A DNA stretch of 56,129 nt. Source: a virus. Lineage: Duplodnaviria; Caudoviricetes. Positions 11,597-36,090 of the stretch are shown here, piece by piece. How positions within the stretch are numbered: position 1 is the stretch's first letter; every line of letters starts with the position of its first letter. A program made the translations under genes and the position numbers. The stretch covers positions 1 to 56,129 of IMG/VR virus record IMGVR_UViG_3300047439_000002. The stretch is one strand, 5' to 3'. Under the pieces are notes generated by a model that was not told the origin of the DNA, ran no database searches, and saw nothing but the letters and a program-made list of their open reading frames with translations.

Positions 11597-11626
11597 GCCT
11601 CGTCCAACAACGACATGGAGGAACAC

Positions 11627-14865: not shown

Positions 14866-14868
14866 CGT
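14839..14868 (+). promoter_or_regulatory. Promoter for the nucleotide-metabolism cassette
   Basis: TTGCGC-N18-TAACGT, then AACGACGAAAGG leader. Confidence 0.45.
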
Positions 14869-14893
14869 GACCACACCAACGACGAAAGGAAAC

Positions 14894-18196: not shown

Positions 18197-18669
18197 CTAG
18201 ACCAACTGTCGATCTAGTACTGATGGCTGCCGCTGAACTGTGGGAGGAGCGATCCACCTGCGATCGGAACCACGTAGGTGCCGTGATTGCCATGCAGGGG
18301 CGGCAGATCGGCTCTGGCTACAACGGTGCCCCGGCAGGAATGCCGCACTGCAACCACCCAGTACCAACTCGAACCGATGGAAGTGTCATCGTCCACCGAG
18401 TATCCCCCGTGATCCCCTTGCCAGAAACTCCCCTCGATCGCGGCTGCAAAGAAGCCATCCACGCGGAAGCCAATGCCCTCGCCTACGCAGCCCGCAACGG
18501 CACTGCGGTGGCCGGTGGCACCCTCTACACCACCCTCTCACCGTGCTATCCGTGTGCGCAGCTGATCATCGCAGCCGGGCTCATCCGAGTCGTGTACGGT
18601 CGCTCGTACCGTGATCCGGCGGGTATCGATCTTCTCCGGCGTGCCGGAGTCCAAGTCGACAAGGTCTGA
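18193..18669 (+). CDS. dCMP deaminase (ComEB-like)
   Basis: RSTC.R..VGA, GYNG, HAEANA, PCYPC. Confidence 0.93.
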   Translation: MTRPTVDLVLMAAAELWEERSTCDRNHVGAVIAMQGRQIGSGYNGAPAGMPHCNHPVPTRTDGSVIVHRVSPVIPLPETPLDRGCKEAIHAEANALAYAARNGTAVAGGTLYTTLSPCYPCAQLIIAAGLIRVVYGRSYRDPAGIDLLRRAGVQVDKV

Positions 18670-18672
18670 TGT

Positions 18673-22394: not shown

Positions 22395-22480
22395 CGTGGA
22401 CGCTATGGGGTCAGATCTGCATCCTGATGTTGCTGGGTACGCTGTGCGCAATCGCTTTCAAGAGCACGCCTCGCGGGTAG
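22391..22480 (+). CDS. 29-aa single-TM peptide
   Basis: MTWTLWGQICILMLLGTLCAIAFKSTPRG; GGAG RBS; ATGA overlap. Confidence 0.55.
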   Translation: MTWTLWGQICILMLLGTLCAIAFKSTPRG

Positions 22481-22536
22481 ATGGTTTGACCTCCCGGTCT
22501 CCCCTGGCATGATTAACCGGCGCAACGATTGGAGGA

Positions 22537-22731
22537 ATGATGGAAAAGGTCGAAGCCAACAACGTGATCTCGTACCAAGGACTGACGGAAAGCCAGGTCG
22601 AGGCGGGTCACGCGGAGGCGGCAGATCGGTCCATGGGTCACGGCTTCGGGGACAACCACCTGGATCTGTTCCCGGAGAATCGGACCGAGGAGAACGTCGC
22701 TGCGGTGGAGGCGGCGCTCAATGGCGGGTAA
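22537..22731 (+). CDS. Hypothetical acidic protein
   Basis: GGAGG RBS. Confidence 0.6.
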   Translation: MMEKVEANNVISYQGLTESQVEAGHAEAADRSMGHGFGDNHLDLFPENRTEENVAAVEAALNGG

Positions 22732-23563
22732 GGATTACGCCGCTATCGCTCGGGCTAAGATCGCTCGTCCGGGCACCGGTCGTAAGCCTCGGTTCCTGAT
22801 CTACGGACGGAACAAGAAGGGGAAGACTCGATTCTGCGCCACCGCTCCCGGCGTGCTGATCGCAGATCCCGAGGATGGCACCACCGCTGAGACTAAGCTC
22901 GACCCTGATGTCTGGCCGGTCACCAAGTGGGACGACCTGGACGAGATCTACAACGCAGTCAAGAGCGGCATCAAGTCGCCCAAGACTAACCAGCCCTATG
23001 AGTGGATCGCCCTGGACGGCATGACTCGCATGCTGTCAATGGCTATCGACTTCGTGTCCCGCCAGCAAGCCGAGAAAGACATCACTCGACAGCCGACTCA
23101 GACTGACCAGCGCACTTACGGTCAGGCTAACCGCATGATCGAGTCGATGTTGCACAACTTCCATTCGCTGCGTAATGTCGGCCTCATATTCACCGCCCAG
23201 GAACGGGTAGTGGAAATCGAGAACATGGAGGACCTCGGCGACGACGAGGACGCGTCGCCTGCATCATTCATGTACGTACCTGACCTGACCAAGGGCGCTC
23301 GCGCACCCCTGAACCAGGTAGTCGATGTCATCGGCCGGATCTACGTGGTCCGAGGTGAGTTCACGACCACACGCCGAGTCAAAGTGGGCGGTGTGGTCCA
23401 GAACAAGGAAGTGGAGACCAAGGTGCAGCGCCGCCTGTTCATCGGTCCCCACGAGATGTATGACACCGGGGTACGTACGGGGTTCAACCTCCCGGACTTC
23501 CTGAAAGAACCGACAGTCGCGTCGCTCACGAGGGCGATGCGCGAGGGAAAGGTAACGACCTAA
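22721..23563 (+). CDS. AAA_24 / Sak4-like recombination ATPase
   Basis: LIYGRNKKGKT, DPEDG, IALDG, FTAQE; lies between the exonuclease and SSB genes. Confidence 0.85.
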   Translation: MAGKDYAAIARAKIARPGTGRKPRFLIYGRNKKGKTRFCATAPGVLIADPEDGTTAETKLDPDVWPVTKWDDLDEIYNAVKSGIKSPKTNQPYEWIALDGMTRMLSMAIDFVSRQQAEKDITRQPTQTDQRTYGQANRMIESMLHNFHSLRNVGLIFTAQERVVEIENMEDLGDDEDASPASFMYVPDLTKGARAPLNQVVDVIGRIYVVRGEFTTTRRVKVGGVVQNKEVETKVQRRLFIGPHEMYDTGVRTGFNLPDFLKEPTVASLTRAMREGKVTT

Positions 23564-23564
23564 A

Positions 23565-24335
23565 TTGGCAGCCACCGTACGCGCAGTGGACCTCTCCAAC
23601 GTCAAGGACGGGGGCAACTTCCGCCCTCGCCGCAAGCCGGAGGGTGACTACCGGGCCAAGATCGTCAAGGCGGACGATCACCTCAAAGAGGGCAAGGAGC
23701 CGGGCTGGGTTCTGACCGTCCAAGTCGAGGGGGACGGGCGCTCCACCTACCCGTACTACCTCTCGTCCGAGGAGAAGCAGTTGTGGAAGGTGCGCGGCAT
23801 CTGCCTCGCCGCCGGTATCCCGGTGGGTAGCAAGCGCATCCGCTTCGACCCCAACAAGCTGGTCAACAAGTCCATCGGCATCGCTCTCGAAGACGATGAG
23901 TACAACGGCCGTGAGAAGTCGGCAATCGCTGACGTATTCACGGTGGCCGAAGTCGGAGCCAATGCCGACGAGGACGTGCCGGACGGCGACGAGCCCGAGG
24001 ACGACGAGATCGAGCTGGACGAGGACCCGGAGGAAGAGCCCGCTCCCGCCCCGAAGCGCCGCCGCAAGGTGGAGCCGGAGCCCGAGCCGGAGGAAGACGA
24101 AGAGGAAGAAGAGGAAGAGCCCGAGCCGACTCCTCCGCCCCGTCGTCGTCGCAAGCCCGCTCCTGCCCCGGAGCCCGAGGAGGACGAGGAAGAGGACGAG
24201 GAGCCGCCCGCTCCCCCAGTGCGTCGTCGTCGTGCGGCGGCTCCGCCCGCCAAGACGGCTCGTCGGGCTGCCCCGGCTCCGGCCGAGGATGACGACGAGG
24301 ACGACCTGGACGATCTGGACACAGACGACCTGTAA
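23565..24335 (+). CDS. Single-stranded DNA-binding protein (DUF669-like) with long acidic/Arg-Pro tail
   Basis: PEGDYRAKIV...LWKVR..DEYNGR; Sak4-SSB gene order. Confidence 0.75.
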   Translation: MAATVRAVDLSNVKDGGNFRPRRKPEGDYRAKIVKADDHLKEGKEPGWVLTVQVEGDGRSTYPYYLSSEEKQLWKVRGICLAAGIPVGSKRIRFDPNKLVNKSIGIALEDDEYNGREKSAIADVFTVAEVGANADEDVPDGDEPEDDEIELDEDPEEEPAPAPKRRRKVEPEPEPEEDEEEEEEEPEPTPPPRRRRKPAPAPEPEEDEEEDEEPPAPPVRRRRAAAPPAKTARRAAPAPAEDDDEDDLDDLDTDDL

Positions 24336-24417
24336 TCCACGCAGTTGACCTAGCCGGGTCAATCGGGGAACATGGTTGTTGAGGCATTGGTGGCCGGAAT
24401 CCTCCGATGTGCTACGC

Positions 24418-24469
24418 AAGGGGCACGATTGAACGACCTTCCCTCGGGGGTCCTTGATCGTGCCCCTTC
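24418..24469 (+). terminator. Long hairpin after the SSB gene
   Basis: AAGGGGCACGAT...ATCGTGCCCCTT. Confidence 0.45.
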
Positions 24470-24491
24470 CTCGTATAAACGGGAGAAGACA

Positions 24492-24746
24492 ATGTTCCAG
24501 GCAAGATACGACAGTAAATGCCCTGCGTGTGATGAGGACATCTTCAGAGGCAGCGACGTCTCAATGGTGGACTCCGATAGGGGCAGGGTCACCATTCACA
24601 CCTCATGCGAACAGGATGCCGTGCTCGTGAATGCCCGGGAGCGGACGGACCACACCACCGTCATGCCGCGCGGCAAGAAGGCCGCAGATCGCTGCCCGGT
24701 GTGCTTCCAAGTACCGGCGTCCAATGACACCTGCGGGTGCTTCTGA
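24492..24746 (+). CDS. Small Zn-binding protein
   Basis: ARYDSKCPAC..I..G..H..C and CPVC...CGC. Confidence 0.7.
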   Translation: MFQARYDSKCPACDEDIFRGSDVSMVDSDRGRVTIHTSCEQDAVLVNARERTDHTTVMPRGKKAADRCPVCFQVPASNDTCGCF

Positions 24747-24866
24747 TGACCTGCCGATGTGGGCGGCCTACTGATAAGCGCGGTAAAACGTGCTGCGCCA
24801 TGTGTCACATCGGGTACGGCACCCACAGCCGCCTGTGCCGACGACGGACTACCGGAGGTACCTAGG

Positions 24867-25235
24867 ATGGGAGCTCAACCCGAATCCAAGCTGAGCCGCG
24901 CCATCATGGCGGCCCTCCGCAATCGCGGGGTCTGGTGCTTCAAGGTGCACGGTGGTCCGTTCACCCAGGCCGGTACCCCGGATATCATCGCCTGCGTGCC
25001 GGTGATGGTTGGCGAAGAAGGGTACGAGACAGAACAGGTCGTCGGCATCTTCGTGGGATTCGAGACTAAGACACCTTCTGGCGGCGATCCATCCCCGGTC
25101 CAAGGTAGGCAGCACGACCTGATCCGCGCGGCGTGTGGTCACGTGTTCGTGCCTCGAACCGTTCAGGACGCCGTAGACGCCATCGAATCGTTGGGATACA
25201 CACCGGCACCCGAATACCGGGTTGAACCCGGCTGA
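24867..25235 (+). CDS. VRR-NUC nuclease / Holliday junction resolvase
   Basis: ESKL, KVHGG, GTPDI, FETK, SPVQ. Confidence 0.88.
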   Translation: MGAQPESKLSRAIMAALRNRGVWCFKVHGGPFTQAGTPDIIACVPVMVGEEGYETEQVVGIFVGFETKTPSGGDPSPVQGRQHDLIRAACGHVFVPRTVQDAVDAIESLGYTPAPEYRVEPG

Positions 25236-25317
25236 GACGATCTGAGGGCCCTCCATGGCCCGGACATGACGATGCCCCGGACATCCCATCGGACGCCGGG
25301 GCATTGTCGTAGGTGGA

Positions 25318-25611
25318 TCAGGCGCACACCGTGACCGTGGTCGATCCACAGCAATAGGTGGTGCGGTCCGCGTTGAGGTGCGGGTTGACCATCCGGCACG
25401 CGCAGTAAACGAGGGTGTTCTTCGATCCCGTAGCGACGCGCCACGCCTTGTCGGCATCCTTGAACATTTGACCGTGACCGGCAGCAATGGCCGAGTTCTG
25501 AGACATGTCCGGGTTGGCCCGGAAGTAGGCCTGAACAACCATCTTCAGCCGGTCCGCCTCAACCATCGCGTCCGTGATCGTGAGGACCGTTCCCTTGGGG
25601 TGCTTCGCCAT
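25318..25611 (-). CDS. Early hypothetical protein
   Basis: Own promoter and RBS; YCAC..H..YCCG. Confidence 0.7.
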   Translation of the reverse strand: MAKHPKGTVLTITDAMVEADRLKMVVQAYFRANPDMSQNSAIAAGHGQMFKDADKAWRVATGSKNTLVYCACRMVNPHLNADRTTYCCGSTTVTVCA

Positions 25612-25647
25612 GATGTCCACCTTCGTCGTTGTCGTCGTTACCTGCGT

Positions 25648-25677
25648 AACCTAACACGACAGCCCGGCACCCCGCAA
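25648..25677 (-). promoter_or_regulatory. Early promoter
   Basis: TTGCGG-N18-TAGGTT, then AACGACGACAACGACGAAGG. Confidence 0.6.
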
Positions 25678-25704
25678 GGGACCGGGCCGATGTCGCGCCG
25701 CGAA

Positions 25705-26226
25705 TCACGCGGGCAGGTCGTTCCAGGGCCAGTCGTCGTCACCGGCGGCGAAGGCCATGGCTGCCTGCACGGAGTCACACCGGTGGGACACGGACGACGA
25801 CAGGTGCCGAATGAACACCCCAGAGTCCCCGTCAGCGTTCCAAACCAGCGACACCTGGCCCACGGTACCCCCGATCAGGATGCGGCTCTCAGCGTCGTTC
25901 AGGGCGTATCCCCGGACCACCCCGTAGCCACGGTCCCAGGCGGTGGTGATCGCGTACATCATCGAGGCCGGGAAGTTGACGGGCACATCTCCGGGGGTTT
26001 TCACCATGTCACCGGCGGCAGTTTTCATTGCCCGGATGGTGGGGGCCAGACCCAGGTTTGCCGCCTGCGCCGCGAGGCGATCGGCCGTTGCCTTGGACCG
26101 CTTGGAAGGGACCACGGTCCATTTAGCCGGGGTGGGCGCAGGTGTGGCCGATGCCAATTGCTTACGGCACGCGGCACGGGCAGCCGGGGTGTTTGCGTGA
26201 TCGTGGTCAGCGTGTGAGATAGCCAT
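25705..26226 (-). CDS. Early protein with N-terminal His/Cys tag (copy 1)
   Basis: MAISHADHDHANTPAARAACRK; GGAGGTG RBS. Confidence 0.8.
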   Translation of the reverse strand: MAISHADHDHANTPAARAACRKQLASATPAPTPAKWTVVPSKRSKATADRLAAQAANLGLAPTIRAMKTAAGDMVKTPGDVPVNFPASMMYAITTAWDRGYGVVRGYALNDAESRILIGGTVGQVSLVWNADGDSGVFIRHLSSSVSHRCDSVQAAMAFAAGDDDWPWNDLPA

Positions 26227-26360
26227 CAGAACACCTCCGGAACAAGGACAAGCACAACAAACAGGACAAGGTTAATGATCGCAGCAGCGAGGATGATCAG
26301 GGCCACCGGGTTAGCCGCGCGCACCCGATCGATCAGGTTGCGCCATCCGTCGTTAGTCAT
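26226..26360 (-). CDS. 44-aa membrane peptide
   Basis: MTNDGWRNLIDRVRAANPVALIILAAAIINLVLFVVLVLVPEVF; overlaps both neighbours. Confidence 0.6.
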   Translation of the reverse strand: MTNDGWRNLIDRVRAANPVALIILAAAIINLVLFVVLVLVPEVF

Positions 26361-26623
26361 CGGGCCACGCGCCACACCGAGGCACCCAGGGTGTACGTCG
26401 CGCGGTCAGCACCGGTGCCGAACTCCACGATCCCGGTACGGGGCGAGGTAACCGACGGGACCGAGAAGATCCGGTTATCCGCCAGGCGCGCGAGCTGACG
26501 AGCGGTCGGAGCGATCGTCACGTCCTTGCCGGTGGGGGTGAAGCTCACCAGCGTGTCGCCCACGATGATGTCAGCAGCCGTGACGAGTTCCAGGTCCGAG
26601 GGGGTGTAGCGCGTCGTTGTCAT
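26357..26623 (-). CDS. Early hypothetical protein, leaderless
   Basis: ATG 6 nt after the -10 box. Confidence 0.75.
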   Translation of the reverse strand: MTTTRYTPSDLELVTAADIIVGDTLVSFTPTGKDVTIAPTARQLARLADNRIFSVPSVTSPRTGIVEFGTGADRATYTLGASVWRVAR

Positions 26624-26629
26624 GTACCT

Positions 26630-26658
26630 AACCTACCATCCGTCCGAAGGGATCACAA
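26630..26658 (-). promoter_or_regulatory. Early leaderless promoter
   Basis: TTGTGA-N17-TAGGTT-N6-ATG. Confidence 0.7.
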
Positions 26659-26668
26659 CACCGGGGGT

Positions 26669-26956
26669 TCAGACGTTGCGGGGGTCACGCTCGATGGTCG
26701 CGGTGGCGAAGAAATCCGCCTGCATGAACCCCTGCGAGGTCCATCCGGTCGCCAGGGTCCAGAACGAGAACCGCGCCTCAACCGGCGAACCGAAACCGGT
26801 CGAGATGTATTCGATCGAGTACGCCACGCCATCAACCCGGAGAACGTCGAATCGCGCCAGTCCCCGCAGCTTAGCGTCCCCCGCGCGGCACAGCTTCCGG
26901 GCGGCAGCGGTGGAGGCGTGATCGCAGATCGTGTGGTTGAGGCGCGTCGTTGTCAT
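26669..26956 (-). CDS. Early protein with His/Cys tag (copy 2), leaderless
   Basis: LNHTICDHASTAAARKLCR. Confidence 0.78.
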   Translation of the reverse strand: MTTTRLNHTICDHASTAAARKLCRAGDAKLRGLARFDVLRVDGVAYSIEYISTGFGSPVEARFSFWTLATGWTSQGFMQADFFATATIERDPRNV

Positions 26957-26962
26957 GAGATG

Positions 26963-26991
26963 AATCTACGATGGGCGGTAGATCGTGTCAA
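26963..26991 (-). promoter_or_regulatory. Early leaderless promoter
   Basis: TTGACA-N17-TAGATT-N6-ATG. Confidence 0.8.
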
Positions 26992-27034
26992 TAGGCGGGA
27001 GCGTGCCAATCTCTCCCAATCTCCCCGAGACGGC

Positions 27035-27082
27035 GTACCTAGGTACGGTCAGGGCTACCCCAAAGCCGTAGGCTCCCGCTGA
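27035..27082. repeat. Tripartite intergenic repeat, copy A
   Basis: GTACCTAGG-N11-CTACCCC-N11-CTCCCGCTGA. Confidence 0.8.
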
Positions 27083-27103
27083 ACGGGAGCCCCGGAGGAT
27101 AAA

Positions 27104-27532
27104 TCAGGCGGCCCGGTAGACCGTCCAGAAACGGTCGCGAGCGATCCGCTCCTCGTAGTCACCGTGCCGGACCACGACAGCCGCGCCGAAACGCTCCGTC
27201 GAGAATCCCGTGACAACCCCCAAGAACGGGTAGTCGTCGTCGCACGCGTCACGGTCCGGGTTGTCCGAGCGAACAACCGAGAGTCCGACGTAGATGTCCA
27301 TGAGATCCTCCGAGGGGAGAGAAGGGGTGGTGAAGGGCCGTGAGATAAATCTACGCTCCCCGGTAGCCCGTGTCAATAGATCCGGGCGTGCCAACTTCAT
27401 ACCCCCATTGGTCATGCTCATGATCTCGATGCAGTCCAGGCACGTCACATCACGTGCGCGCACCGTGAGATGGTTGATGATCCGGGTATTGCACAACGCT
27501 ACGGTACCCGCGCGCCGGTGCATGGTCCGCAT
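27104..27532 (-). CDS. Early hypothetical protein
   Basis: MH..G..ALC...VTCLDC Zn motif; GGAGG RBS. Confidence 0.7.
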   Translation of the reverse strand: MRTMHRRAGTVALCNTRIINHLTVRARDVTCLDCIEIMSMTNGGMKLARPDLLTRATGERRFISRPFTTPSLPSEDLMDIYVGLSVVRSDNPDRDACDDDYPFLGVVTGFSTERFGAAVVVRHGDYEERIARDRFWTVYRAA

Positions 27533-27534
27533 GA

Positions 27535-27822
27535 TCAGGCCTCCCACCCGCAGGCGCACATCCCGGAACCCCGGTGGAGCTCGGCCTGGACGCACGTCTC
27601 GGGGGTGCGGATGACCAGGGTCGGCTTCGGCGCGCGGGTCACGGGCGCACGCAGGTTATCCGCAGCCACCGCCTGACGCGCGATGCGCCGCGCCACCGGG
27701 CCAGTCATCCGGATGGGTGCGGGGGTCACCACGGGAGCGGGAGCGCTGACCACACCGCCACGACAGGCGCGCCGTCCGGCCGGTGTGCGGGGGTGGGTGC
27801 AGGTTGCGTGAGACATTGCCAT
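27535..27822 (-). CDS. Early protein with His/Cys tag (copy 3)
   Basis: MAMSHATCTHPRTPAGRRACR. Confidence 0.75.
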   Translation of the reverse strand: MAMSHATCTHPRTPAGRRACRGGVVSAPAPVVTPAPIRMTGPVARRIARQAVAADNLRAPVTRAPKPTLVIRTPETCVQAELHRGSGMCACGWEA

Positions 27823-27837
27823 GATGGTCAGCCCCGT

Positions 27838-28161
27838 TCAGTTCGCGTGGTGGTTGCGGCAGTCGGTGCGCGAGTACGACAGCAATTCGTTGCAGCACGC
27901 GGTGTAACCCTCGTGGTGCCCCGGGTCGAGCTGTCCGCAGTTTTCGCAGTGCAGCTGATCGATCGTGCAACCCGTAGCCCGACGATCGATGCGTGCCTTC
28001 ATCGCCGCGTTAGCGACCGTCTTGCGGATGTGGTTAGCGACGTAGCCGTCAGCCTCGATCCGCTGACGCGTCGGAGATCCACCGGAGGCGGCGAGCTTGC
28101 GACACGCGGCCCGAGCGGCGGGGGTTGCCGGGTGATTGTGGCCCGTGTGTGAGATCGCCAT
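27838..28161 (-). CDS. Early protein with His/Cys tag (copy 4)
   Basis: MAISHTGHNHPATPAARAACRK; Cys-rich C-terminus; GGAGG RBS. Confidence 0.78.
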   Translation of the reverse strand: MAISHTGHNHPATPAARAACRKLAASGGSPTRQRIEADGYVANHIRKTVANAAMKARIDRRATGCTIDQLHCENCGQLDPGHHEGYTACCNELLSYSRTDCRNHHAN

Positions 28162-28201
28162 GATGTCCGCCTCCGTTGTCGTCGTTGTCATTTACCCATT
28201 A

Positions 28202-28231
28202 AACCTACCGTGCGGGGTGGAGGTATCGCAA
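28202..28231 (-). promoter_or_regulatory. Early promoter
   Basis: TTGCGA-N18-TAGGTT. Confidence 0.6.
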
Positions 28232-28253
28232 CCCCCACCCCGGTAGATGTGGT

Positions 28254-28469
28254 TTAGATCACATCCCACATCGGCAGGTCCAGGTCACAGGTGGGGATAT
28301 CGAAGGTCATCCCCACACCACCGAGGTTGATGTCGGTGTGTGGCCAGAGGATCACCCGAACCACCGCCGGGTAGGTGATGGCCCGGAGGAACGGCCGTCC
28401 CGCACCTTCGTAATCGATGATGGGAGCGTCCGTGCGGTTCATGAGTTCCCGCGTGGTGAGACGGGTCAT
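28254..28469 (-). CDS. Early hypothetical protein
   Basis: GGAGGT RBS and own promoter. Confidence 0.7.
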   Translation of the reverse strand: MTRLTTRELMNRTDAPIIDYEGAGRPFLRAITYPAVVRVILWPHTDINLGGVGMTFDIPTCDLDLPMWDVI

Positions 28470-28506
28470 GATGACCTCCGGTGTGTCGTTGTTGTGTTGT
28501 CTACGT

Positions 28507-28536
28507 ACTCTACCGCCCGGACGGGAGCTGACACAA
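28507..28536 (-). promoter_or_regulatory. Early promoter
   Basis: TTGTGT-N18-TAGAGT. Confidence 0.55.
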
Positions 28537-28559
28537 CCCCCATCCGGGCAGAACTTTGG

Positions 28560-28793
28560 TTACGGTCGGCTACACTTCATGCCGTTGAAGTGGTCCCCCT
28601 TCCGGCACTTGTTGTAGACCGCTTCGGAGACATTGGTAGTCCCCTTTCCTTTGATCGTCAGTTCATAGTGCGTGGAGGTGTAGGCACCATTGGGCACCAC
28701 CACCACCTTCTTACCGGATACCGTGCCGGACGGAGCGGGATCGCATCCGGCCAGCATGGCGAGGGCCAGAACTGCGGGGATGATTCTCTTCAT
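28560..28793 (-). CDS. Small lipoprotein
   Basis: MKRIIPAVLALAMLAGC lipobox. Confidence 0.85.
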   Translation of the reverse strand: MKRIIPAVLALAMLAGCDPAPSGTVSGKKVVVVPNGAYTSTHYELTIKGKGTTNVSEAVYNKCRKGDHFNGMKCSRP

Positions 28794-28796
28794 GGC

Positions 28797-29828
28797 TCAG
28801 TTACCCTTCTCGATGGCGATACCCGAGGCGTCCAGCCGGGAGGCGGTGGTGTGGCCCCGGGAGACATTCACGGCCTCCGCAGCCGTCTTACCGGATGCCC
28901 GACCAGCACGGGCAGAGGTGGAGTATTCACGTCGCTGAGCGGCAATCTCGTCCCGCTGGGTCCAGGCACGGGGACGCATGTACGAGTGCTCATTGCACGT
29001 GGTCTTGACCTTGGCGCACTTGGCGCATTCCTGGGTGGGATCGACCCATGGCTTAACGTCCGTCACAGGTGCCGGAGGAAACATCTCGGTGTATGCCTCG
29101 CGTACGCGGTCCACGCGTCCGGCCAGGGCGGGGAGGGCACCCACGGAGTTAGCCGCGTCACGTGCCTCACGGAGACGCCGAATGAGGGTGGTGACGAAGC
29201 TTTCAGCGTACGCCTCGCGGTACGTCTTGGTGTCGAAGCCCAGCCCGGTGGCCCGAGCTTCCTCGCCGCGCGTGGCAGCCTCGCGCAGATAGATCCGCTG
29301 GACCTTGGAACGGTTCTTCGCCTCCGCACCCGCTCCCTTTCCCCAGGCCTTCTCAGCAATCTCGCGGCGCTCGATACCCGCATTCCGGAGGAAGAAGATG
29401 TTGTCCGACTCGGACCGCTCGTCAGACCAGGTGGGGGTGATCCGCGTAGCGAACATCAGGTGTGAGGCCGTGATCAGAAACTCGGCGTGCCGAAGGTCCA
29501 GGTCGTAACCGACCAGGGTGAACCGGTACCCGGCATTGAGCGAAGCGATGTTGACCATGACGCCGGTGTGGTTCGCCACCTGACGGACGATCGTGCACAG
29601 GTGGTGCGACAGCGCCCAGTCATGGGAGTGAATGTCCATCACGAGGTGAGTCGGCACGGCTGCCGTTGCATCCTGCGCAATGGCCTCTTCCTGAGCGACG
29701 TTGTAATCGGCCATCAGGCGCATTGCCTTCGCGGTGTAAGCGTCAGCCGCAACATCGTTACCAAGCTCACGCTCGGACTCGGCCTTCGCAAGCAAGCCGC
29801 GCACCTTGGATGCGTAGTCAAAAGCCAT
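28797..29828 (-). CDS. DUF2786-like domain protein
   Basis: KVRGLLAKAES.....A.AYTAKA.RLM..Y N-terminus; RASGKTAAEAVNV tail. Confidence 0.75.
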   Translation of the reverse strand: MAFDYASKVRGLLAKAESERELGNDVAADAYTAKAMRLMADYNVAQEEAIAQDATAAVPTHLVMDIHSHDWALSHHLCTIVRQVANHTGVMVNIASLNAGYRFTLVGYDLDLRHAEFLITASHLMFATRITPTWSDERSESDNIFFLRNAGIERREIAEKAWGKGAGAEAKNRSKVQRIYLREAATRGEEARATGLGFDTKTYREAYAESFVTTLIRRLREARDAANSVGALPALAGRVDRVREAYTEMFPPAPVTDVKPWVDPTQECAKCAKVKTTCNEHSYMRPRAWTQRDEIAAQRREYSTSARAGRASGKTAAEAVNVSRGHTTASRLDASGIAIEKGN

Positions 29829-29906
29829 GACGATCTCCCCTCGGGTACCACACCGCCGGTCGGTGCGTCGAACAGGTGTTACGCTACCACGTGCTTACAT
29901 CTCGCG

Positions 29907-30371
29907 TCATGCCGGAGTGTTCACCAGTTGTGAAACCGGTGACAGTTGGTCCTGCGGCTGCTCCGGTTCCTCCGGCTGGTCCGGCCCTGGCTCCTCGCCG
30001 CCTGGCTCGGGCATGGCTTCTCCGACCCACCAGATCGCCGTAGAGACGTCGTCACGCGGCACCGTGATGGTGGTCGGTACCGGGGTGCCAGGCCGTTGTA
30101 GCGTCACTGAGATGGCTCCACCGGCCACGCGGCGCGGCACGCGGACCACGGTCCACCGGGAGCCATCGTCCATGAGCACGGAGAGGTTGAGGGCCATCTG
30201 ATCGGTTGGCCGGATCAGGTCCAGGTGGTCAGCGTCCGGCTGCCTGGGCATCGTGTCGTAGGGCCCCGTGACGGAGACGGAGACCTCACCCATACCTAGG
30301 ATAACCCCGGGAGTTGGGACCGGCAGCATGGCGTACGTCCTTCCAAACGCGGAGATTGGATCGGTCACCAT
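29907..30371 (-). CDS. Hypothetical protein
   Basis: Packed in operon; acidic Pro-rich tail. Confidence 0.6.
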   Translation of the reverse strand: MVTDPISAFGRTYAMLPVPTPGVILGMGEVSVSVTGPYDTMPRQPDADHLDLIRPTDQMALNLSVLMDDGSRWTVVRVPRRVAGGAISVTLQRPGTPVPTTITVPRDDVSTAIWWVGEAMPEPGGEEPGPDQPEEPEQPQDQLSPVSQLVNTPA

Positions 30372-30399
30372 GGTAACCGACCCCCACCCGCAGGATGAA

Positions 30400-30786
30400 T
30401 CAGACAAACTCCCCGTATTCCTGGTCAGCCGGGTCACACCCGCAGAATACCGCGTCATAGCCCTCGTTCAGCTCGTCGCCAGGCGCACCCTCCGCTACCG
30501 GGAACACATCGTCACAGACCGGGCAGTTGGCTTTGACCGAGAATCCCGAGTCGGACCACACCAAGTTGTATTCGGTGTCTCCCGGGCAGTCCAGGCTGAT
30601 CAGCGCGTCCACCAGGCCGATGACGTTGGAGTTGAAGCTGTCCGTGAGGTACGGCACGGTGGACGCCTCGAAATCCTCCACGGGGATCATGACCGGTTCG
30701 AAGTCGGGTGAGTCCCGCCATTCCCCGCCGTACACGCGAACCTGGACCTTGGCCTCGGCTTCGGGGGTGTTGGTGTTGTGCGTCAT
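30400..30786 (-). CDS. Hypothetical acidic Zn-binding protein
   Basis: CPVC...CGC; AACAACGACGGAGG leader. Confidence 0.72.
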   Translation of the reverse strand: MTHNTNTPEAEAKVQVRVYGGEWRDSPDFEPVMIPVEDFEASTVPYLTDSFNSNVIGLVDALISLDCPGDTEYNLVWSDSGFSVKANCPVCDDVFPVAEGAPGDELNEGYDAVFCGCDPADQEYGEFV

Positions 30787-30869
30787 CGGGAACCTCCGTC
30801 GTTGTTTGGTACGCCTACCGTACCACCCGGACGGAGATCAACCTAACCCCCGTCCGGGTGGATTTCCCG

Positions 30870-31085
30870 TCAGAGAATCGTGAGGTCCGTGTTGTCGCGG
30901 AGGGTGTCACGGATCATCGCGCCGACCCCGGAGAGGGTGCGGTCCGCCACGTACGCCGCAGCCATGATCGCGGCAGCCGCGTCGTCGTCGAGGTCGTCAG
31001 CGAAGTGGATGATCGTCGCGCACGCGCGGTCAATCTCGTTGTCGTCGATGTCGCCGAGGATGTCGTCGAGATCCGAGTCCGTCAT
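30870..31085 (-). CDS. Hypothetical acidic protein
   Basis: AACGACGAAGGGG leader. Confidence 0.65.
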   Translation of the reverse strand: MTDSDLDDILGDIDDNEIDRACATIIHFADDLDDDAAAAIMAAAYVADRTLSGVGAMIRDTLRDNTDLTIL

Positions 31086-31199
31086 GGTGTCCCCTTCGTC
31101 GTTCGATCGGTACCCCCTAATCCTACCCCGCGTGAGGCCCAAACCTGACACTTCCGCAAGTCTTTTTCCGGCAATCTCAGCTGCCCGTGAGCCGAAGAC

Positions 31200-31246
31200 G
31201 TACCTAGGTACCGTGAGACCTACCCCACCCCGGAAACTCCCGCTGA
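31200..31246. repeat. Tripartite intergenic repeat, copy B
   Basis: GTACCTAGG-N11-CTACCCC-N10-CTCCCGCTGA. Confidence 0.8.
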
Positions 31247-31256
31247 GCGGGCTACG

Positions 31257-31283
31257 AAAAAGACCACCCCCGGAGGGGTGGCC
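31257..31283 (-). terminator. Intrinsic terminator
   Basis: GGCCACCCC-TCC-GGGGTGGTC-TTTTT on the minus strand. Confidence 0.7.
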
Positions 31284-31295
31284 CGTTCCGTTGGA

Positions 31296-31736
31296 TCAGT
31301 TGGCCGGAGCCGTGACCAGGTCACGGACCAGGCGGTATTCCGTCGCGGTCAGCGAGTACTTCCGGCCCTTGCCAACCCCCAGGCCCAGCGCCCGGAGGTG
31401 CACCCGGAGCTCCTTGGGGGTGAGGTCCGTCTTGAGCGCGTCCGACAGGTGCGCCGCGAGCTCAGCCGTCGTCATGTCCTCGCCGAGCTCGGCGTAGATG
31501 TCCTCGTCCGTCATCTCGTCCGAGTCATCGTCGTCGTCGTCGCCCAGGTTGTCGAGGTCCATGCCGTCGATCTTCGAGAGGGCGATCGAGCGGGTCTTGC
31601 CGTCCACCTTGATGTTGACACCCTTCGAGTTGACCGAGAACGCCTCGCCGAAGGCCGTCATTCCATCGGTCAGGCGAACGATGATCTCCTCGCCCTTGTT
31701 GTCGTTGATGAAGTCGGTAGCGTCGATGACGTTCAT
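31296..31736 (-). CDS. Sm/SH3-like N-domain plus HTH DNA-binding domain
   Basis: TTAELAAHL...TPKELRVHLR..G.GKGRKYSL. Confidence 0.75.
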   Translation of the reverse strand: MNVIDATDFINDNKGEEIIVRLTDGMTAFGEAFSVNSKGVNIKVDGKTRSIALSKIDGMDLDNLGDDDDDDSDEMTDEDIYAELGEDMTTAELAAHLSDALKTDLTPKELRVHLRALGLGVGKGRKYSLTATEYRLVRDLVTAPAN

Positions 31737-31799
31737 GGTGAGTCCCCTCGGTGTGTGCGGTCCGGCCGGTCCGGCGCCGCGTTGTTTTGTTATGTGAGT

Positions 31800-31828
31800 A
31801 ATCTAACCTACCGTCCGGGCCAACGCAA
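31800..31828 (-). promoter_or_regulatory. Early promoter
   Basis: TTGCGT-N17-TAGATT. Confidence 0.65.
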
Positions 31829-31924
31829 CAGGCAAACCGGACATCTTCCAAGATCTTTTGGGGATTCTCTGAAACGTTTCAAAGTCGCTTCAACGGGAGG
31901 CTACGCCCGGTGGACGCAGCCGGT

Positions 31925-32176: not shown

Positions 32177-32523
32177 TAGCGCGTGACCTCCCAGATCAGG
32201 CGGGACACCGGGGAGTTCAGCATCCATCCGAACGCCATCAGAACGCTCCCAGCGAACACACAGGCCACCGACCATACCGGCACCCGTGGAACGCGTGACG
32301 GACGCTCAGCGGGCATCTCAGCACCCTTGTCGAGGGCCCGCATGATGCCGGTCACGGACACCCCCGCATCGGGTGAATGGCTGTTGACCTTGTGCCACCG
32401 CTGGGTGTGCGCCTGAACTACGGCGGGGGGTGGGATCTCGCCGGTGAAGACGTACGCGTCCTCGAGCTTGAAGCCGGGCACCACGGGAACGGAGTTCCGA
32501 GATTGGTACGTGCGGGATCTCAT
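32176..32523 (-). CDS. Hypothetical protein with C-terminal TM helix
   Basis: ATGA overlap; hydrophobic tail. Confidence 0.65.
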   Translation of the reverse strand: MRSRTYQSRNSVPVVPGFKLEDAYVFTGEIPPPAVVQAHTQRWHKVNSHSPDAGVSVTGIMRALDKGAEMPAERPSRVPRVPVWSVACVFAGSVLMAFGWMLNSPVSRLIWEVTR

Positions 32524-32942
32524 GCCGCTGACACCAGGTCGTTGCCCCGCTGCGTGATGTGCAACCCCTTCGCCATGAGAAGCACCATCAGCCGAGCCTC
32601 AGCTGCCTGTGCGTCCCGCTTGACCCGTGCACGCACGCGAGGGTTACGGATGTCTTCCAGCGACACCGGGCCCTCTTCCGCCCATTCCGCCTCGTCCCGC
32701 TTACGGATCTCCGCAGCCTTCGCTTGCTGCACGACAGGCACGGGGGTGGGTGTCTTGGGCTTCGGCTTGCCCGCACCCTGCCAGAGAGAGAATCGCTTGA
32801 CCAGTGTGGGGATGTCAGCTTCGGTAAACTCGTACCGGGCACCGGAGCCAACGGCAACGAAGGTCGAGTCACCCGAGCGGAGGAATTGCCGGAGAACGCG
32901 GGGTGTGGTCCCGATTGCTTCGGCCACAGTCTTGGTGTCCAT
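32520..32942 (-). CDS. HTH DNA-binding protein
   Basis: TKTVAEAIGTTPRVLRQFLR....VGSGARYEF. Confidence 0.8.
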   Translation of the reverse strand: MDTKTVAEAIGTTPRVLRQFLRSGDSTFVAVGSGARYEFTEADIPTLVKRFSLWQGAGKPKPKTPTPVPVVQQAKAAEIRKRDEAEWAEEGPVSLEDIRNPRVRARVKRDAQAAEARLMVLLMAKGLHITQRGNDLVSAA

Positions 32943-32985
32943 GTCGTTGTCTCCCTCGGTAATGCCCCCCGGACGGGGCGGATAG

Positions 32986-33207
32986 TTAGTTGTTGGATTC
33001 AAGTTGGCGTGCTGCATCATTGGTCATCCAGAACCGCTCGTCATCTTCGTCCTCGGGCAGCATGTGCGCCACCAGGGACCAGAAGTCGTCGTGCCTTCGT
33101 TGGGCCACACCGCGAGGGGAGGGGGACCACTCGGCCAGCGGGCCGAGGGCCTCCGTGTGCATACCCAGTCGTTCGAGCAGCACAGCCGCACGTTCAGCGC
33201 TTGTCAC
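32986..33207 (-). CDS. Hypothetical protein
   Basis: GTGA overlap, GGAG RBS. Confidence 0.55.
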   Translation of the reverse strand: MTSAERAAVLLERLGMHTEALGPLAEWSPSPRGVAQRRHDDFWSLVAHMLPEDEDDERFWMTNDAARQLESNN

Positions 33208-34031
33208 ATCTTGCTCCGGCAGTCAGGGCCGATCCCGTAAGCGCGGGATGTGGCGTCAGTGAGCGTCCGGTTGCACCGGCCGCAGGAACCGATCTTCGAG
33301 CCGTACAGCCGGGTCGAGATCTCCCAGCCCATCTCCCGGATACCATCCAGAACCGCCTTCCGGGTGGCCCAGTTGCGCACCGGGTGCCGCTCGTCGGAGG
33401 CGTACACATCGACGTACAGCCGACCGTTCTTGTGGTGGTTCACCCGGTAGAACTTGATGTCGTCGTCCTCACCCAGCGCGTAGTTGCCGGTAGGGATGTC
33501 GTCGTAGGCGTCAAAGGTGGTAGCCGCCCGCTCCGTGACTCGAACAACCTTGGCCGATTCCTTGGCCTCCGCGTGCTTCGCCTTGATCCGGTCGATGAGC
33601 TGCGAGGCGGAGCCACCCTTGCCCCCCGCCAGCGTGCCCCAGCCACCCCGGTCGAGCCAGTCGGTCATCGCTGCCGCCGCGTCAGCATCGTGCTCGGCGA
33701 GCCAGGTCAGGCGGAGGCGGATCAGGTTCACCTGGGCGGGAGAGGCACCGGTAACCGGCATGTTGGGGTCAGGGCAGCACCGGGGGTTGTCGCACGTCTC
33801 ACGGTTGTGACCGGTGTCAGCCAGGTCCTCCGTGGTCGGCAGGGTGATCATGCCGGGGTTCTGGTTGCGAGGGCCGGTGTAGGCCAGGTCGTCCGCACCT
33901 TCCACGATCCGGATCATCCCCGTGTTCTTCGGCGCAGCCACATGGTACTTGGGCGCGTCATCGAAGTCGGTGCGTACCCCCGCCAGCGATTCCCTGGTCA
34001 TGGCCCGCATACGGGTGAGGATGTCGGTCAT
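33204..34031 (-). CDS. Protein with C-terminal DUF6011-like Zn ribbon
   Basis: CGRCNRTLTDATSRAYGIGPDC; ASPAQ..I..L...ASQLIDRIK module. Confidence 0.82.
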   Translation of the reverse strand: MTDILTRMRAMTRESLAGVRTDFDDAPKYHVAAPKNTGMIRIVEGADDLAYTGPRNQNPGMITLPTTEDLADTGHNRETCDNPRCCPDPNMPVTGASPAQVNLIRLRLTWLAEHDADAAAAMTDWLDRGGWGTLAGGKGGSASQLIDRIKAKHAEAKESAKVVRVTERAATTFDAYDDIPTGNYALGEDDDIKFYRVNHHKNGRLYVDVYASDERHPVRNWATRKAVLDGIREMGWEISTRLYGSKIGSCGRCNRTLTDATSRAYGIGPDCRSKM

Positions 34032-34064: not shown

Positions 34065-34093
34065 ACCGTACGCGTCTCCGCCACGCGCCGCAA
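34065..34093 (-). promoter_or_regulatory. Early promoter
   Basis: TTGCGG-N17-TACGGT. Confidence 0.55.
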
Positions 34094-34437
34094 CCCCGGA
34101 CATGAAACGGGGGGCAAGGTGGGGGCAACAACGACGAAAACCCCACCCCACCCCCCACCGGCCTAACCACCCACCGGCACGCGCGGCCTAAGGTAACCAC
34201 TTCAGAGGAAATCGGACTTACTGCCAGGTGTCCCTGGTCCTGCCGCCTCCGTACCGCGCTTCCCCTCGTTTCCAGCCCGACCACCACTTGCGAACGTCTT
34301 CGCTGCCTTAACCACCCGATCACTCCCGGTAGGTGGCACGGCGTAAACGCAGTGGCCGAACCGTTTACAGGGACCACACCGCCAGTCAGCGTCCATACGT
34401 CCCGTGAATGGCACGAACTACGCCGTGTGGTCCCTTG

Positions 34438-34518
34438 CCCCTCGCCCTGGACTTGAACCAGGATCTCCCCGAGCGGAGGCGATCCGCCCAGTCGTGCTAC
34501 CAATTGCACCACCGAGGG
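34438..34518 (-). tRNA. tRNA-like element with non-canonical anticodon arm
   Basis: Acceptor CCCTCG/CGAGGG, D arm GTGC-AATTGGTA-GCAC, T arm CCTGG-TTCAAGT-CCAGG; anticodon arm is a 9-bp stem with a 5-nt loop; no encoded CCA. Confidence 0.6.
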
Positions 34519-34622
34519 TTAATGGCGTCCTCACCCCCTTCGCCAAAAGAGAATGATTCAGCCACCGCAGATTGGCGTCCGCTTGTCAGCAACTGGGCAT
34601 TATGAGTACCCAGCCCTAACCG

Positions 34623-34687
34623 TGCTCCCAGCCCGACTCGAACGGGCAGTAATCCTACGAACCGCGTAGCGGACGGTTAGCGGGAGC
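34623..34687 (-). tRNA. D-armless tRNA-like element
   Basis: Acceptor GCTCCCG/TGGGAGC plus A73; T arm GCCCG-TTCGAGT-CGGGC; no D arm and no 7-nt anticodon loop. Confidence 0.5.
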
Positions 34688-34720: not shown

Positions 34721-35389
34721 TCACTTCGCCGCAGTGGCGGTCTTCCGACGAGCGGTAGCCGGGGTGGCCTTGGCGGGAGCGGTCGACTTCGCGGCAGCCG
34801 GACGGCGACGAGTCGGCTTGGGAGCCTCCTCGACGTCCTCGTCATCCTCGTCGTCCTCCATCTCCTCGGCCTCGGCAGCCGCCGCCTTCGCAGCCGCAGC
34901 CGCCGCCTTCTTCGCAGCCGCCTGGTCCTTCACGGCTTGCAGCCCGGCCTGCTTGAGCTCCTTCGCCGCGCCGCTCTTGACCATCTCGACGACGAGCTTG
35001 ACCGTGGTGTCCTGCGGACCGGTGAACTGGTACCGCTCCCGGGTCTCGCCCACCTCACGGTCGAGCTTGCCGTCCTTGGCGAGCTTGCGGAGCAGCATCC
35101 GGATGGCCCGAGCGTCGTAGGTGTCGCCGGTCACCTCGGTCACGTGAGCCGCGAGCCACGGGCTGCCGAACTCGATAGCCGGAGCACGCTTGGCCTTCGG
35201 GCTCTCCTCGCCGTCGGCCTTCGGAGCCGCCGCCTTGCGAGCCTTGGTCTTCGGGGCGGGAGCCTCGGGCTCCTCCTCGAGCTCTTCCAGGTCGTCGTCC
35301 TCGACGTCCTCGAACTCGTCCTCGTCGTCCTCCACGATCTCCGGCTCGACCGGCTTCGTGGCGGTACGTCCTCGCGGTGCAGGTGCCAT
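34721..35389 (-). CDS. Nucleoid-associated-like DNA-binding protein (HTH core, acidic and AK-rich tails)
   Basis: WLAAHV...DARAIRMLLR....GETRERYQF; GGAGG RBS. Confidence 0.8.
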   Translation of the reverse strand: MAPAPRGRTATKPVEPEIVEDDEDEFEDVEDDDLEELEEEPEAPAPKTKARKAAAPKADGEESPKAKRAPAIEFGSPWLAAHVTEVTGDTYDARAIRMLLRKLAKDGKLDREVGETRERYQFTGPQDTTVKLVVEMVKSGAAKELKQAGLQAVKDQAAAKKAAAAAAKAAAAEAEEMEDDEDDEDVEEAPKPTRRRPAAAKSTAPAKATPATARRKTATAAK

Positions 35390-35446: not shown

Positions 35447-35475
35447 ACATTACGGCGCTTCCGGCTAGCCGTCAA
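35447..35475 (-). promoter_or_regulatory. Strong promoter; may also drive the ncRNA locus
   Basis: TTGACG-N17-TAATGT. Confidence 0.7.
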
Positions 35476-35569: not shown

Positions 35570-35929
35570 ATGGCCTTCATAGCCCTGGTACACATCCCGG
35601 ACCACACCGCCGAACACGTCATCGAGCGGATGGGAGTGGTCGAGCGGTTCAATGAGCTTCCCGAGGGTTCCCGGTGGGTGGGTCTCTACGAGTTCCCTGA
35701 TCGTGTCGAGCTTCGGAAGGGTTGCACCGGATGCACGGCCGGTCGGAAGACAACGGCGTGGACCCGTCACAAGAAGGGGCACATGATGTGCGCTAACTGC
35801 GGAGGGCGTAACCCGAACGTCCGTCGCTGGTTCGTCGGAGGACTGTTCGATTGGTTCGGGGCTAACCTCTACCCATTAGCTCCGGCTTTGTTCCGTTCTC
35901 CCGAAGGCTACGGCGATTCCCCGCGTTGA
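35570..35929 (+). CDS. Zn-ribbon hypothetical protein
   Basis: CTGC...CANC; AGGAG RBS. Confidence 0.72.
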   Translation: MAFIALVHIPDHTAEHVIERMGVVERFNELPEGSRWVGLYEFPDRVELRKGCTGCTAGRKTTAWTRHKKGHMMCANCGGRNPNVRRWFVGGLFDWFGANLYPLAPALFRSPEGYGDSPR

Positions 35930-35940
35930 ACAGCCTCCAT

Positions 35941-36090
35941 TAAAACCCAGCAACGGGGAACAAGCGTAGCTTGTTATACCCCATCCGCTGGGTTTAATTC
36001 CGGAGTTCCTAGTTCACCCTCAACAATGCCCCCGGATAACATAGCACTACCGGGGGCATTGCTGGGTTATTGCTGGGTTATTGCTGGGTT
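35941..36090. repeat. Two hairpins plus 3x ATTGCTGGGTT tandem repeat at a convergence point
   Basis: Hairpins at about 35941-35996 and 36024-36061; tandem at 36058-36090. Confidence 0.8.

Follow-up and report, generated by a model that had tools for sequence, protein, structure and literature searches.

Why does the loop of one intergenic hairpin carry the complement of a motif that recurs at the starts of many genes in the same genome? The question was raised by positions 34109 to 34156 (minus strand) of the viral contig IMGVR_UViG_3300047439_000002, and the window analysed here is this whole contig of 56,129 bp (G+C 61.6%). The loop matched the 5′ ends of the genes beyond chance. A dual function of the hairpin, as a terminator and as a GcvB- or RNAIII-like anti-leader RNA, is the reading that we tentatively favour, with a rough probability of 0.4. 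An earlier note, made from the sequence alone, had taken the hairpin for a phage small RNA (sRNA) that silences a regulon and shuts off early expression. The hairpin was reproduced as that note described it, with the same coordinates, stem and loop:

34109 to 34156, minus strand: whole hairpin, with a 16-bp G/C-rich stem, three wobble pairs and a 16-nt loop.
34141 to 34156, minus strand: 5′ arm, GGGGGGTGGGGTGGGG.
34125 to 34140, minus strand: apical loop, TTTTCGTCGTTGTTGC (as RNA, UUUUCGUCGUUGUUGC), G/U-rich, predicted open and complementary to a C/A-rich 5′ element.
34109 to 34124, minus strand: 3′ arm, CCCCACCTTGCCCCCC, followed by GTTTCATGT, with no real U-tract.

The 16-bp stem consisted of 13 G-C or A-U pairs and three wobble pairs (one U-G and two G-U). 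The minus-strand RNA folded at −35.4 kcal/mol (z −2.89), an energy that 4 of 200 shuffles attained. The plus-strand RNA, which showed two internal loops, reached −29.0 kcal/mol (z −1.99), and 9 of 200 shuffles did as well. The preference for the minus strand, earlier argued from the three G-U pairs, was borne out by these energies, and the minus strand is supported as the favoured RNA strand. In the genome scan this was the strongest intergenic minus-strand hairpin. Its loop was unpaired in silico except for a weak 2-bp inner helix, and its opening cost was about 1.7 kcal/mol. Rfam 15, including the phage C4 and tRNA families, gave no match at the gathering score across the window, and below threshold only microRNA-hairpin look-alikes were detected (E 0.35–2.5).

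If the plus strand were transcribed instead, the loop would show the sense motif and might act as a decoy for a motif-binding factor. The plus strand folds too, at the energy given above, and holds the motif in a 16-nt loop. However, the neighbouring genes and both conserved promoters all lie on the minus strand, and in plus-strand RNA C-A mismatches replace the three wobble pairs. No convincing plus-strand promoter was seen by eye, with no formal scan beyond the terminator scan. We give a decoy hardly any credence.

The 73 genes of the window were called by a self-trained codon-usage caller, a non-standard program, and the start codons may be a few codons off. By Watson-Crick pairing the loop complements a C/A-rich element, approximately CAACAACGACGAA (the loop is the reverse complement of GCAACAACGACGAAAA), and the reverse complement of its segment UUCGUCGUUGU is exactly ACAACGACGAA. 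This 11-mer had two exact copies in the genome, one in the loop (34128 to 34138, plus strand) and one at a gene start (25622 to 25632, minus strand). The recurring part was a core of 9–11 nt. With at most one mismatch to the 11-mer, 8 matches were found against 0.93 expected, and none of 100 shuffles reached 8. ACAACGA, CAACGAC, and AACGACG were the three most enriched 7-mers at gene 5′ ends (−30 to +12, 73 genes); they occurred in 9, 10, and 8 genes, respectively (Poisson P 5e-10 to 3e-8), and ranked above Shine-Dalgarno (SD) words. More than half of the genome copies of AACGACG (10 of 19) were no further than 22 nt from a start codon on the same strand.

A contiguous Watson-Crick complement to the loop of at least 9 nt was present in 10 of the 73 gene 5′ regions. 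Of 817 sense windows inside genes 3 had one, and of the 73 antisense 5′ regions none did. None of 2000 composition-preserving loop shuffles reached 10 of 73 (mean 0.10, maximum 7), and eleven other intergenic hairpin apexes of the genome gave 0–3 of 73 by the same test. The claim that the loop is antisense to a gene-start motif therefore held for the core of 9–11 nt, at 10 of 73 starts, and failed for the exact 11-mer, which lay beside one start only.

By this result the complementarity is very unlikely to be due to chance. The match could also be sheer coincidence, a G/U-rich loop meeting leaders that are C/A-rich in general. This reading would gain something from the C/A-rich composition of leaders across this phage group (e.g., CACCAACAGCGA, CAACGGACC), from energy-based scores that were only marginally above shuffles, and from the post hoc choice of the finding from 56 kb. 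We nevertheless rate it very improbable, as neither the composition-preserving shuffles nor the other eleven apexes came near the observed count. Complementarity that is too specific for chance needs a cause, and the simplest functional cause would be RNA pairing.

Pairing was scored as duplex energy plus opening energies over 1494 sense windows, which represent the whole sense transcriptome; cofolding was set aside because pairing of a loop with a linear segment is a pseudoknot. In this accessibility-corrected target ranking, a check named in the earlier note, 11 of the top 30 sites lay at −30 to +5 of a start codon, including ranks 1, 2, 5, 8, and 9, with total energies of −15 to −11 kcal/mol. 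The hairpin has two features of a base-pairing sRNA of the loop-seed type, namely an accessible loop and multi-target 5′ complementarity beyond chance. The candidate targets are as follows:

25622 to 25632, minus strand: exact ACAACGACGAA abutting the SD (..GAAGGTGG) of gene 25318–25611; rank 1.
30797 to 30806, minus strand: AACAACGACG fused to GGAGG in the leader of gene 30400–30786.
31095 to 31103, minus strand: AACGACGAA before GGGG in the leader of gene 30870–31085.
28179 to 28188, minus strand: ACAACGACGA in the leader of gene 27838–28161 (codons 2–4 if the ATG at 28191 is used).
28485 to 28494, minus strand: CAACAACGAC in the leader of gene 28254–28469.
26945 to 26953, minus strand: ACAACGACG as codons 2–4 of the apparently leaderless gene 26669–26956 (TTGACA-N17-TAGATT, 6 nt, ATG).
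26612 to 26620, minus strand: ACAACGACG as codons 2–4 of the apparently leaderless gene 26357–26623 (GGTAGGTT, 6 nt, ATG).
2939 to 2948, minus strand: ACAACGACGA as codons 2–5 of gene 2763–2951; rank 2.
11605 to 11614, plus strand: CAACAACGAC in the leader of gene 11627–11992, the first of the rightward replication block.
14877 to 14887, plus strand: CAACGACGAAA before GGAAAC GTG in the leader of gene 14894–15109.

Seven of these targets lay at 25.3–31.1 kb in a block of small genes; the replication block had two, and the remaining one was at 2.9 kb. The match with the loop was 11 nt long for the 25611 and 14894 leaders and 10 nt long for the 11627, 28469, and 30786 leaders; in the 25611 leader the predicted pairing can extend to 13 bp, into the SD. 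The genes with the motif were not paralogues. Only one protein pair among the 73 was found at E ≤ 1e-3, and one member of that pair had the motif. The ten target genes are unrelated, and the element must therefore have been maintained independently.

The motif started 6–16 nt past −10-like boxes (G[GT]TAGGTT, TAGAGT, TAGGAT, TAGATT, TAACGT), and its position relative to the start codon varied from −24 to +3. In seven cases it stood between the −10 box and the SD (e.g., ACAACGACGAAGGTGG, AACAACGACGGAGG). In the other three, the −10 box was followed by 6 nt and then ATGACAACGACG, so that the motif forms codons 2–4 (Met-Thr-Thr-Thr) of apparently leaderless messages. As the register is held with the −10 box rather than with the start codon, the motif is most simply read as a 5′-terminal element of primary transcripts. 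C/A-rich ACA motifs 5′ of the SD are known translation enhancers (PMC3879156; this and the other papers cited here were available in extract), and by analogy the intrinsic role of the element is plausibly that of a translation enhancer.

Upstream of most motif genes a hairpin directly abutted the −10 box. At 25600–31850 (minus strand) about eight repeated cassettes were observed, each with a G-rich hairpin, a G[GT]TAGGTT-type −10 box, a C/A-rich leader and a small unrelated gene. These −10 boxes had no clear −35, and the loops of the cassette hairpins share a GGGGUU start. The leader of gene 25705–26226 (26227–26275, minus strand) showed the opposite composition to the C/A-rich leaders: it is G/U-rich (CCTTGTCCTGTTTGTTGTGCTTGTCCTTGTT) and holds an 8-nt complement, UUGUUGUG, to the 28469 leader.

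The register with the −10 box would also suit a motif that is read by a protein. The motif might be an asymmetric operator- or stoperator-like DNA site at +1 to +15, or it might be recognised in RNA by the ribosome or a translational repressor, in the manner of an ACA enhancer or a RegA site. In that case the hairpin would contribute, with its reverse copy, an extra DNA site about 40–55 bp upstream of the next promoter (34065–34093). Proteins with a helix-turn-helix (HTH) are encoded nearby, such as the MerR-like gene 32520–33020. The start-associated sequences (SAS) of Cluster K mycobacteriophages are also one-oriented with a single unexplained reverse copy, for which the extract of PMC3203893 leaves an RNA or a protein ligand open. 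However, every one of the ten gene-proximal copies in the present genome reads in the sense direction (0 of 73 antisense), as would suit a motif that acts at the RNA level or in a strictly directional way. The copy in reverse lies precisely in the single-stranded apex of a hairpin whose G-U pairs favour an RNA function, and no repressor or integrase was identified in the 59 of 73 proteins scanned against Pfam and the 18 of 73 scanned against PHROGs. We consider a protein reader improbable.

The likeness to SAS consists of a short asymmetric motif at the starts of unrelated non-structural genes, in one orientation, with one reverse copy. As described in the same extract (PMC3203893), SAS is a 13-bp GGGATAGGAGCCC-type motif which includes the SD and lies 3–7 bp before the start codon. 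The present motif, CAACAACGACGAA, is instead rich in C and A and is found either after the ATG or 5′ of the SD; it keeps a promoter register and has its reverse copy in a hairpin loop. It does not belong to SAS, and the comparison is an analogy only.

Whether the hairpin could be made as RNA depends on its transcription unit, which was read as follows:

35447 to 35475, minus strand: consensus-like promoter TTGACG-N17-TAATGT, start of the unit ending at the hairpin, conserved in G000–G004 (G000 is this phage).
34721 to 35389, minus strand: sole protein gene of the unit, 222 amino acids (aa), with an acidic N-terminus and a Lys/Ala-rich middle, of no known family.
34622 to 34687, minus strand: second degenerate tRNA-like element, T-arm plus acceptor-like, seen as a sub-threshold plus-strand hit of an unrelated Rfam family.
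34437 to 34518, minus strand: degenerate tRNA-like element, called by ARAGORN as tRNA-Ala(cgc), 82 nt, with a G.G in the acceptor stem and no tRNA match in Rfam.
34157 to 34178, minus strand: small stem-loop directly 5′ of the big hairpin (GCCGGU, a loop with GGUUAG, GCCGGU).
34065 to 34093, minus strand: promoter-like TTGCGG-N17-TACGGT just 3′ of the hairpin, starting 15 nt after the stem.
33204 to 34031, minus strand: synteny anchor, the gene that comes next after the hairpin; its 275-aa product has a DUF6011 domain at the C-terminus.

The promoter at 35447–35475 is near the host consensus and was kept almost letter for letter in 5 of 5 genomes compared (G000–G004). An untranslated tail of about 560 nt, with the degenerate tRNA-like pieces, separates the 222-aa gene from the hairpin. 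The promoter-like sequence at 34065–34093 aligned with TTGCrT...GTGTAnnGT and a CAACGGACC..CGACGAAGGrGG leader in the relatives. A reading of the hairpin as the tail of the late operon was not sustained: the structural operon ends at a bidirectional hairpin at 36019–36066, and the focal hairpin closes the unit of promoter 35447–35475. By this arrangement of predicted signals, it would be the 3′ end of a short early-type unit and an insulator of the next promoter.

The window comes from what is, by its sequence, an uncultured actinophage-like virus, because its capsid and terminase showed 40–53% identity to those of Microbacterium, Curtobacterium, Gordonia, and Mycobacterium phages, nucleotide searches of the phage collection returned no match to the window or the hairpin region, and the only sequencing run containing the window was a soil-metagenome DNA run. 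The host is probably actinobacterial. A capsid search gave 47 related IMG/VR contigs, of which five complete ones (G001–G005) were compared in full; a sixth relative, G011, is a partial contig covering the locus. At the locus these relatives are distant, with 41–56% identity for the neighbouring protein and none closer than about 56%. The closest relatives by capsid, G006 and G007 (84–89% identity), are fragments ending short of the locus. Searches with the protein of one neighbouring gene gave four relatives among viral contigs but no usable locus, and none among genome or metagenome contigs; the other neighbour led to a single contig, L001, which ends before the hairpin.

In 6 of 6 relatives (G001–G005, G011) a strong hairpin was found 50–165 nt upstream of the homologue of the DUF6011 gene. 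The 64-nt hairpin windows of the relatives folded at −28 to −48 kcal/mol, with the same promoter and leader directly after. The conservation of position and stability in all six points to a basic role as a terminator or 3′-end structure. The small stem-loop next to the hairpin has GGTTAGGCCG in common between this phage, G002, and G004, and in G004 it reads GUCGGU/GCCGAU, a compensatory change; it may be a conserved RNA element in its own right.

Intrinsic (Rho-independent) terminators likewise have a G/C-rich stem that ends a transcription unit, are strand-asymmetric and stand directly before the next promoter. The focal stem, with 16 bp and −35.4 kcal/mol, lies within the 5–20 bp of such terminators, and the hairpin ends one unit between the promoters at 35447–35475 and 34065–34093 at a conserved position. 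Structure, strand bias and conserved position make the terminator part, taken alone, a likely prediction. U-tract-less 'I-shaped' intrinsic terminators occur in actinobacteria. Because the hairpin differs from a canonical L-shaped terminator in its 16-nt loop and in having only GUUUCAUGU after the stem, we file it as working like a U-tract-less terminator and not as a canonical member.

Under the dual function, a transcript from the TTGACG-N17-TAATGT promoter would run through the 222-aa gene and the tail of about 560 nt to the hairpin. The hairpin would act as an I-shaped terminator or 3′-end structure, at which transcription would end, and would shield the promoter at 34065–34093 from read-through. 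In the resulting RNA, which would have to exist in sufficient abundance, the open 16-nt loop of the stable 3′-terminal hairpin would pair in vivo with the 5′ elements of at least ten messages. The pairing, of 9–13 bp, would reach the SD or the start codon, and in leaderless messages it would cover codons 2–4. Initiation would be blocked and translation of the target messages lowered, that is, the outcome would be repression rather than activation. The most ambitious form of this model, in which the 3′-terminal hairpin of an abundant early transcript is the master anti-leader RNA for about ten messages, leadered and leaderless, is rather unlikely. If it were true, one small RNA structure would set the level or timing of translation of a phage regulon without Hfq in an actinobacterial host.

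A number of results weigh against the dual function. Energies were less decisive than contiguous matches: by duplex energy alone the best value (−21.0 kcal/mol) was modest, being reached by 3.7% of 300 shuffles. Duplexes of −14 kcal/mol or lower were found in 14 of 73 5′ regions, while shuffles averaged 6.3 such regions and gave up to 19. The energy-only statistic is much weaker because G-U pairs favour any G/U-rich loop. By way of G-U pairs, GAC-repeat coding sites (Asp runs) were also among the top-ranked sites of the accessibility-corrected list. The hairpin also departs from a canonical terminator. Its loop of 16 nt is twice the usual size (3–8 nt), no U-tract is present, with GUUUCAUGU directly 3′ of the stem, and a terminator scan with a loop limit of 3–8 nt did not report it. 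The hairpins of the relatives were likewise without a clean U-tract.

The timing gave no help either. The source promoter is early-type and offers no obvious temporal switch or built-in delay. A late-made shut-off RNA is not implied by the layout, because the hairpin ends the unit of a conserved host-type promoter and not a late operon. The presumed early block does not include three of the ten candidate targets. The early shut-off proposed before is thus doubtful, and we treat its timing as unsupported.

The comparison with relatives also counted against a trans-acting loop. Their apexes varied, with loops such as AGGUUCA, CAAGCAC, and AACCUGCGACAC (7 nt and 12 nt) and branched forms. Neither CGUUGU nor any other anti-motif was present in the syntenic hairpin of the 6 relatives, and no strong intergenic hairpin of the relatives' genomes held one. 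When the apex was compared with the gene starts of its own genome, no enrichment of complements was found in 5 of 5 tested relatives; the only marginal value was that of G001 at 6 nt or more (a count of 12 where the mean was 5.4; 4.3% of shuffles got as far). The exact 16-mer of the loop had 32 matches in IMG/VR, none in a G/C hairpin, and these were chance hits. Conservation and covariation of the loop, by which the earlier note would have had the idea stand or fall, were therefore not found (loop in 0 of 6 relatives, apex matching own starts in 0 of 5), for distant relatives only. Support from covariation is removed, yet this is weak evidence because the relatives are so distant (41–56% identity). 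As far as these sequences reach, the loop is a lineage-specific feature and not a family trait, which is why the negative comparison matters.

A metagenome profile search gave 80 loci with full-length matches of at most 44% identity; 57 of the 80 entered the hairpin scan and 53 were scored. Among the listed strongest upstream hairpins of these 53 loci, none had the anti-motif. In five loci (L078, L081, L086, L092, L096) the syntenic hairpin had pyrimidine-rich loops, namely CUCCCCCCC, ACCCUUUCAAA, UCUCUCAAUUC, ACCUCUCA, and CUCUCC. Judged by composition, these loops might be anti-SD-like, a different form of complementarity between loop and ribosome-binding site.

The leader element was present in the relatives in weaker form. 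G004 had four copies of ACAACGACG and five gene starts with CAACGGA, and G002 had four gene starts with ACAACGA. In the leader of the 30786 homologue, G004 reads AAACAACGGAGG and this phage AAACAACGACGGAGG, a single case which hints that the leaders of this phage fit the loop better than those of the relatives.

Alternatively, the hairpin may be a terminator or 3′-end structure only. Its variable apex would then hold an inverted copy of the leader element, left by inverted duplication or cassette recombination, with no role in trans. We hold this possible, and nearly as likely as the dual function. The position is conserved in 6 of 6 relatives, sequence and apex are free to vary, and none has the anti-motif. 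The four copies of ACAACGACG in G004 occur with no anti-loop, so the leader element works without one. The roughly eight hairpin-promoter-leader cassettes at 25.6–31.8 kb would offer substrates for rearrangement. However, no flanking homology beyond the motif marks a duplication, and the loop fits the consensus of the leader variants rather than any single leader. Leaving 16 nt unstructured in the loop reduces stability, and a neutral loop of this kind should tend to become shorter; chance alone is very unlikely as the source of the match (0 of 2000 shuffles).

Returning to the dual function, one likeness is to GcvB of enterobacteria. As far as the extracts of PMC3879156 and PMC2837412 describe it, a G/U-rich single-stranded segment of GcvB is complementary to a C/A-rich element 5′ of the SD in many mRNAs, and ACA translation enhancers located there, immediately 5′ of the SD, are silenced when GcvB pairs with them (PMC3879156). 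The present C/A-rich element resembles GcvB targets further in that it probably favours translation itself. Unlike the loop of a terminator-type hairpin, the GcvB seed is linear and belongs to an Hfq-dependent sRNA with its own gene; the hairpin has no homology to it and no Rfam match.

A hairpin loop as seed is known from other RNAs. According to the extracts, C-rich loops of S. aureus RNAIII pair with ribosome-binding sites (PMC2837412), and loops of the actinobacterial 6C sRNA (M. tuberculosis) bind several mRNAs independently of a chaperone (PMC6486639). The focal hairpin would be like both in directing a loop at the unpaired ribosome-binding regions of several mRNAs, and like 6C in doing so chaperone-free in high-GC Gram-positives. 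Their loops are C-rich and face a G-rich SD, whereas the present loop is G/U-rich and faces a C/A-rich element beside the SD or start codon; neither RNA has sequence or structural homology to the focal hairpin. Phages P1 and P7 likewise encode a structured RNA, the c4 antisense RNA, which uses short exposed segments to pair with a ribosome-binding region of a phage message (extract of PMC12197685). It acts on one operon for immunity, whereas the candidate targets here are many and dispersed, and no Rfam C4 match was found. If real, the hairpin would by analogy be a variant of known loop-seed riboregulation.

The repeated cassettes recall the PeSL cassettes of T4-type phages, in which a repeated terminator stem-loop and promoter flank small non-essential early genes (extract of PMC2839356). 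The units here that may be likened to them are the approximately eight units of hairpin and G[GT]TAGGTT-type −10 box at 25.6–31.8 kb and the focal hairpin with TTGCGG-N17-TACGGT, all of them predicted promoters and terminators. In the same extract PeSLs are described as recombination or shuffling modules, and complementarity between loop and leader is not mentioned (PMC2839356). Their phage type and host differ from those of the present case, and no homology to them exists here.

Why the distinction matters can be stated for both outcomes. Translational control of phage early genes, as far as it is known, is mostly exerted by proteins (T4 RegA), with a few single-target antisense RNAs. If the dual function is true, a multi-target anti-leader seed in a terminator loop would be a cheap and fast-evolving way of tuning a regulon and a worked example of chaperone-independent loop pairing in high-GC hosts. 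Should the RNA model fall, the locus would still define a promoter-proximal C/A-rich 5′ element common to leadered and leaderless messages of unrelated genes, together with a conserved terminator-promoter junction in a sparsely studied soil actinophage-like group.

The gene layout, read as a circle, consists of three blocks, two leftward and one rightward:

11344 to 225, continuing into structural genes 56049 to 36096, minus strand: leftward block, including an AAA_25 helicase/primase-like protein.
11627 to 25235, plus strand: rightward replication block with SNF2 helicase, dUTPase, thymidylate synthase, dCMP deaminase, family A polymerase, PD-(D/E)XK nuclease and AAA_24.
35389 to 25318, minus strand: leftward block of mostly small unknown genes, with MerR-type HTH, DUF6011 and DUF2786.

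A divergent control region lies between 35390 and 35570, with a small rightward gene (35570–35929, plus strand) opposite the promoter at 35447–35475; in this phage group it probably serves as the main switch of immediate-early expression. In the 222-aa protein a region rich in Lys, Ala and Pro comes after the strongly acidic N-terminal stretch EDDEDEFEDVEDDDLEELEEEPE. The protein is kept in the relatives, has no Pfam family and is possibly a DNA-mimic or nucleoid-directed host-takeover protein. Odd tRNA calls were also seen in relatives L052 and L071 at the place of the tRNA-like pieces.

Genes 18409–18669 and 18853–21282 (plus strand) were probably truncated by the caller, and longer open reading frames (ORFs) run from 18193 to 18669 and from 18673 to 21282. 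The polymerase combines an N-terminal UDG-like segment with 3′–5′ exonuclease and family A polymerase domains. The bidirectional hairpins at 25266–25310 and 36019–36066, located at convergent and terminal junctions, have near-identical arms, AATGCCCC and GGGGCATTG. Nucleotides 1–127 of the window are identical to its last 127 nt (56003–56129), a repeat into which a terminase-like ORF extends and which indicates a circular assembly or terminal redundancy.

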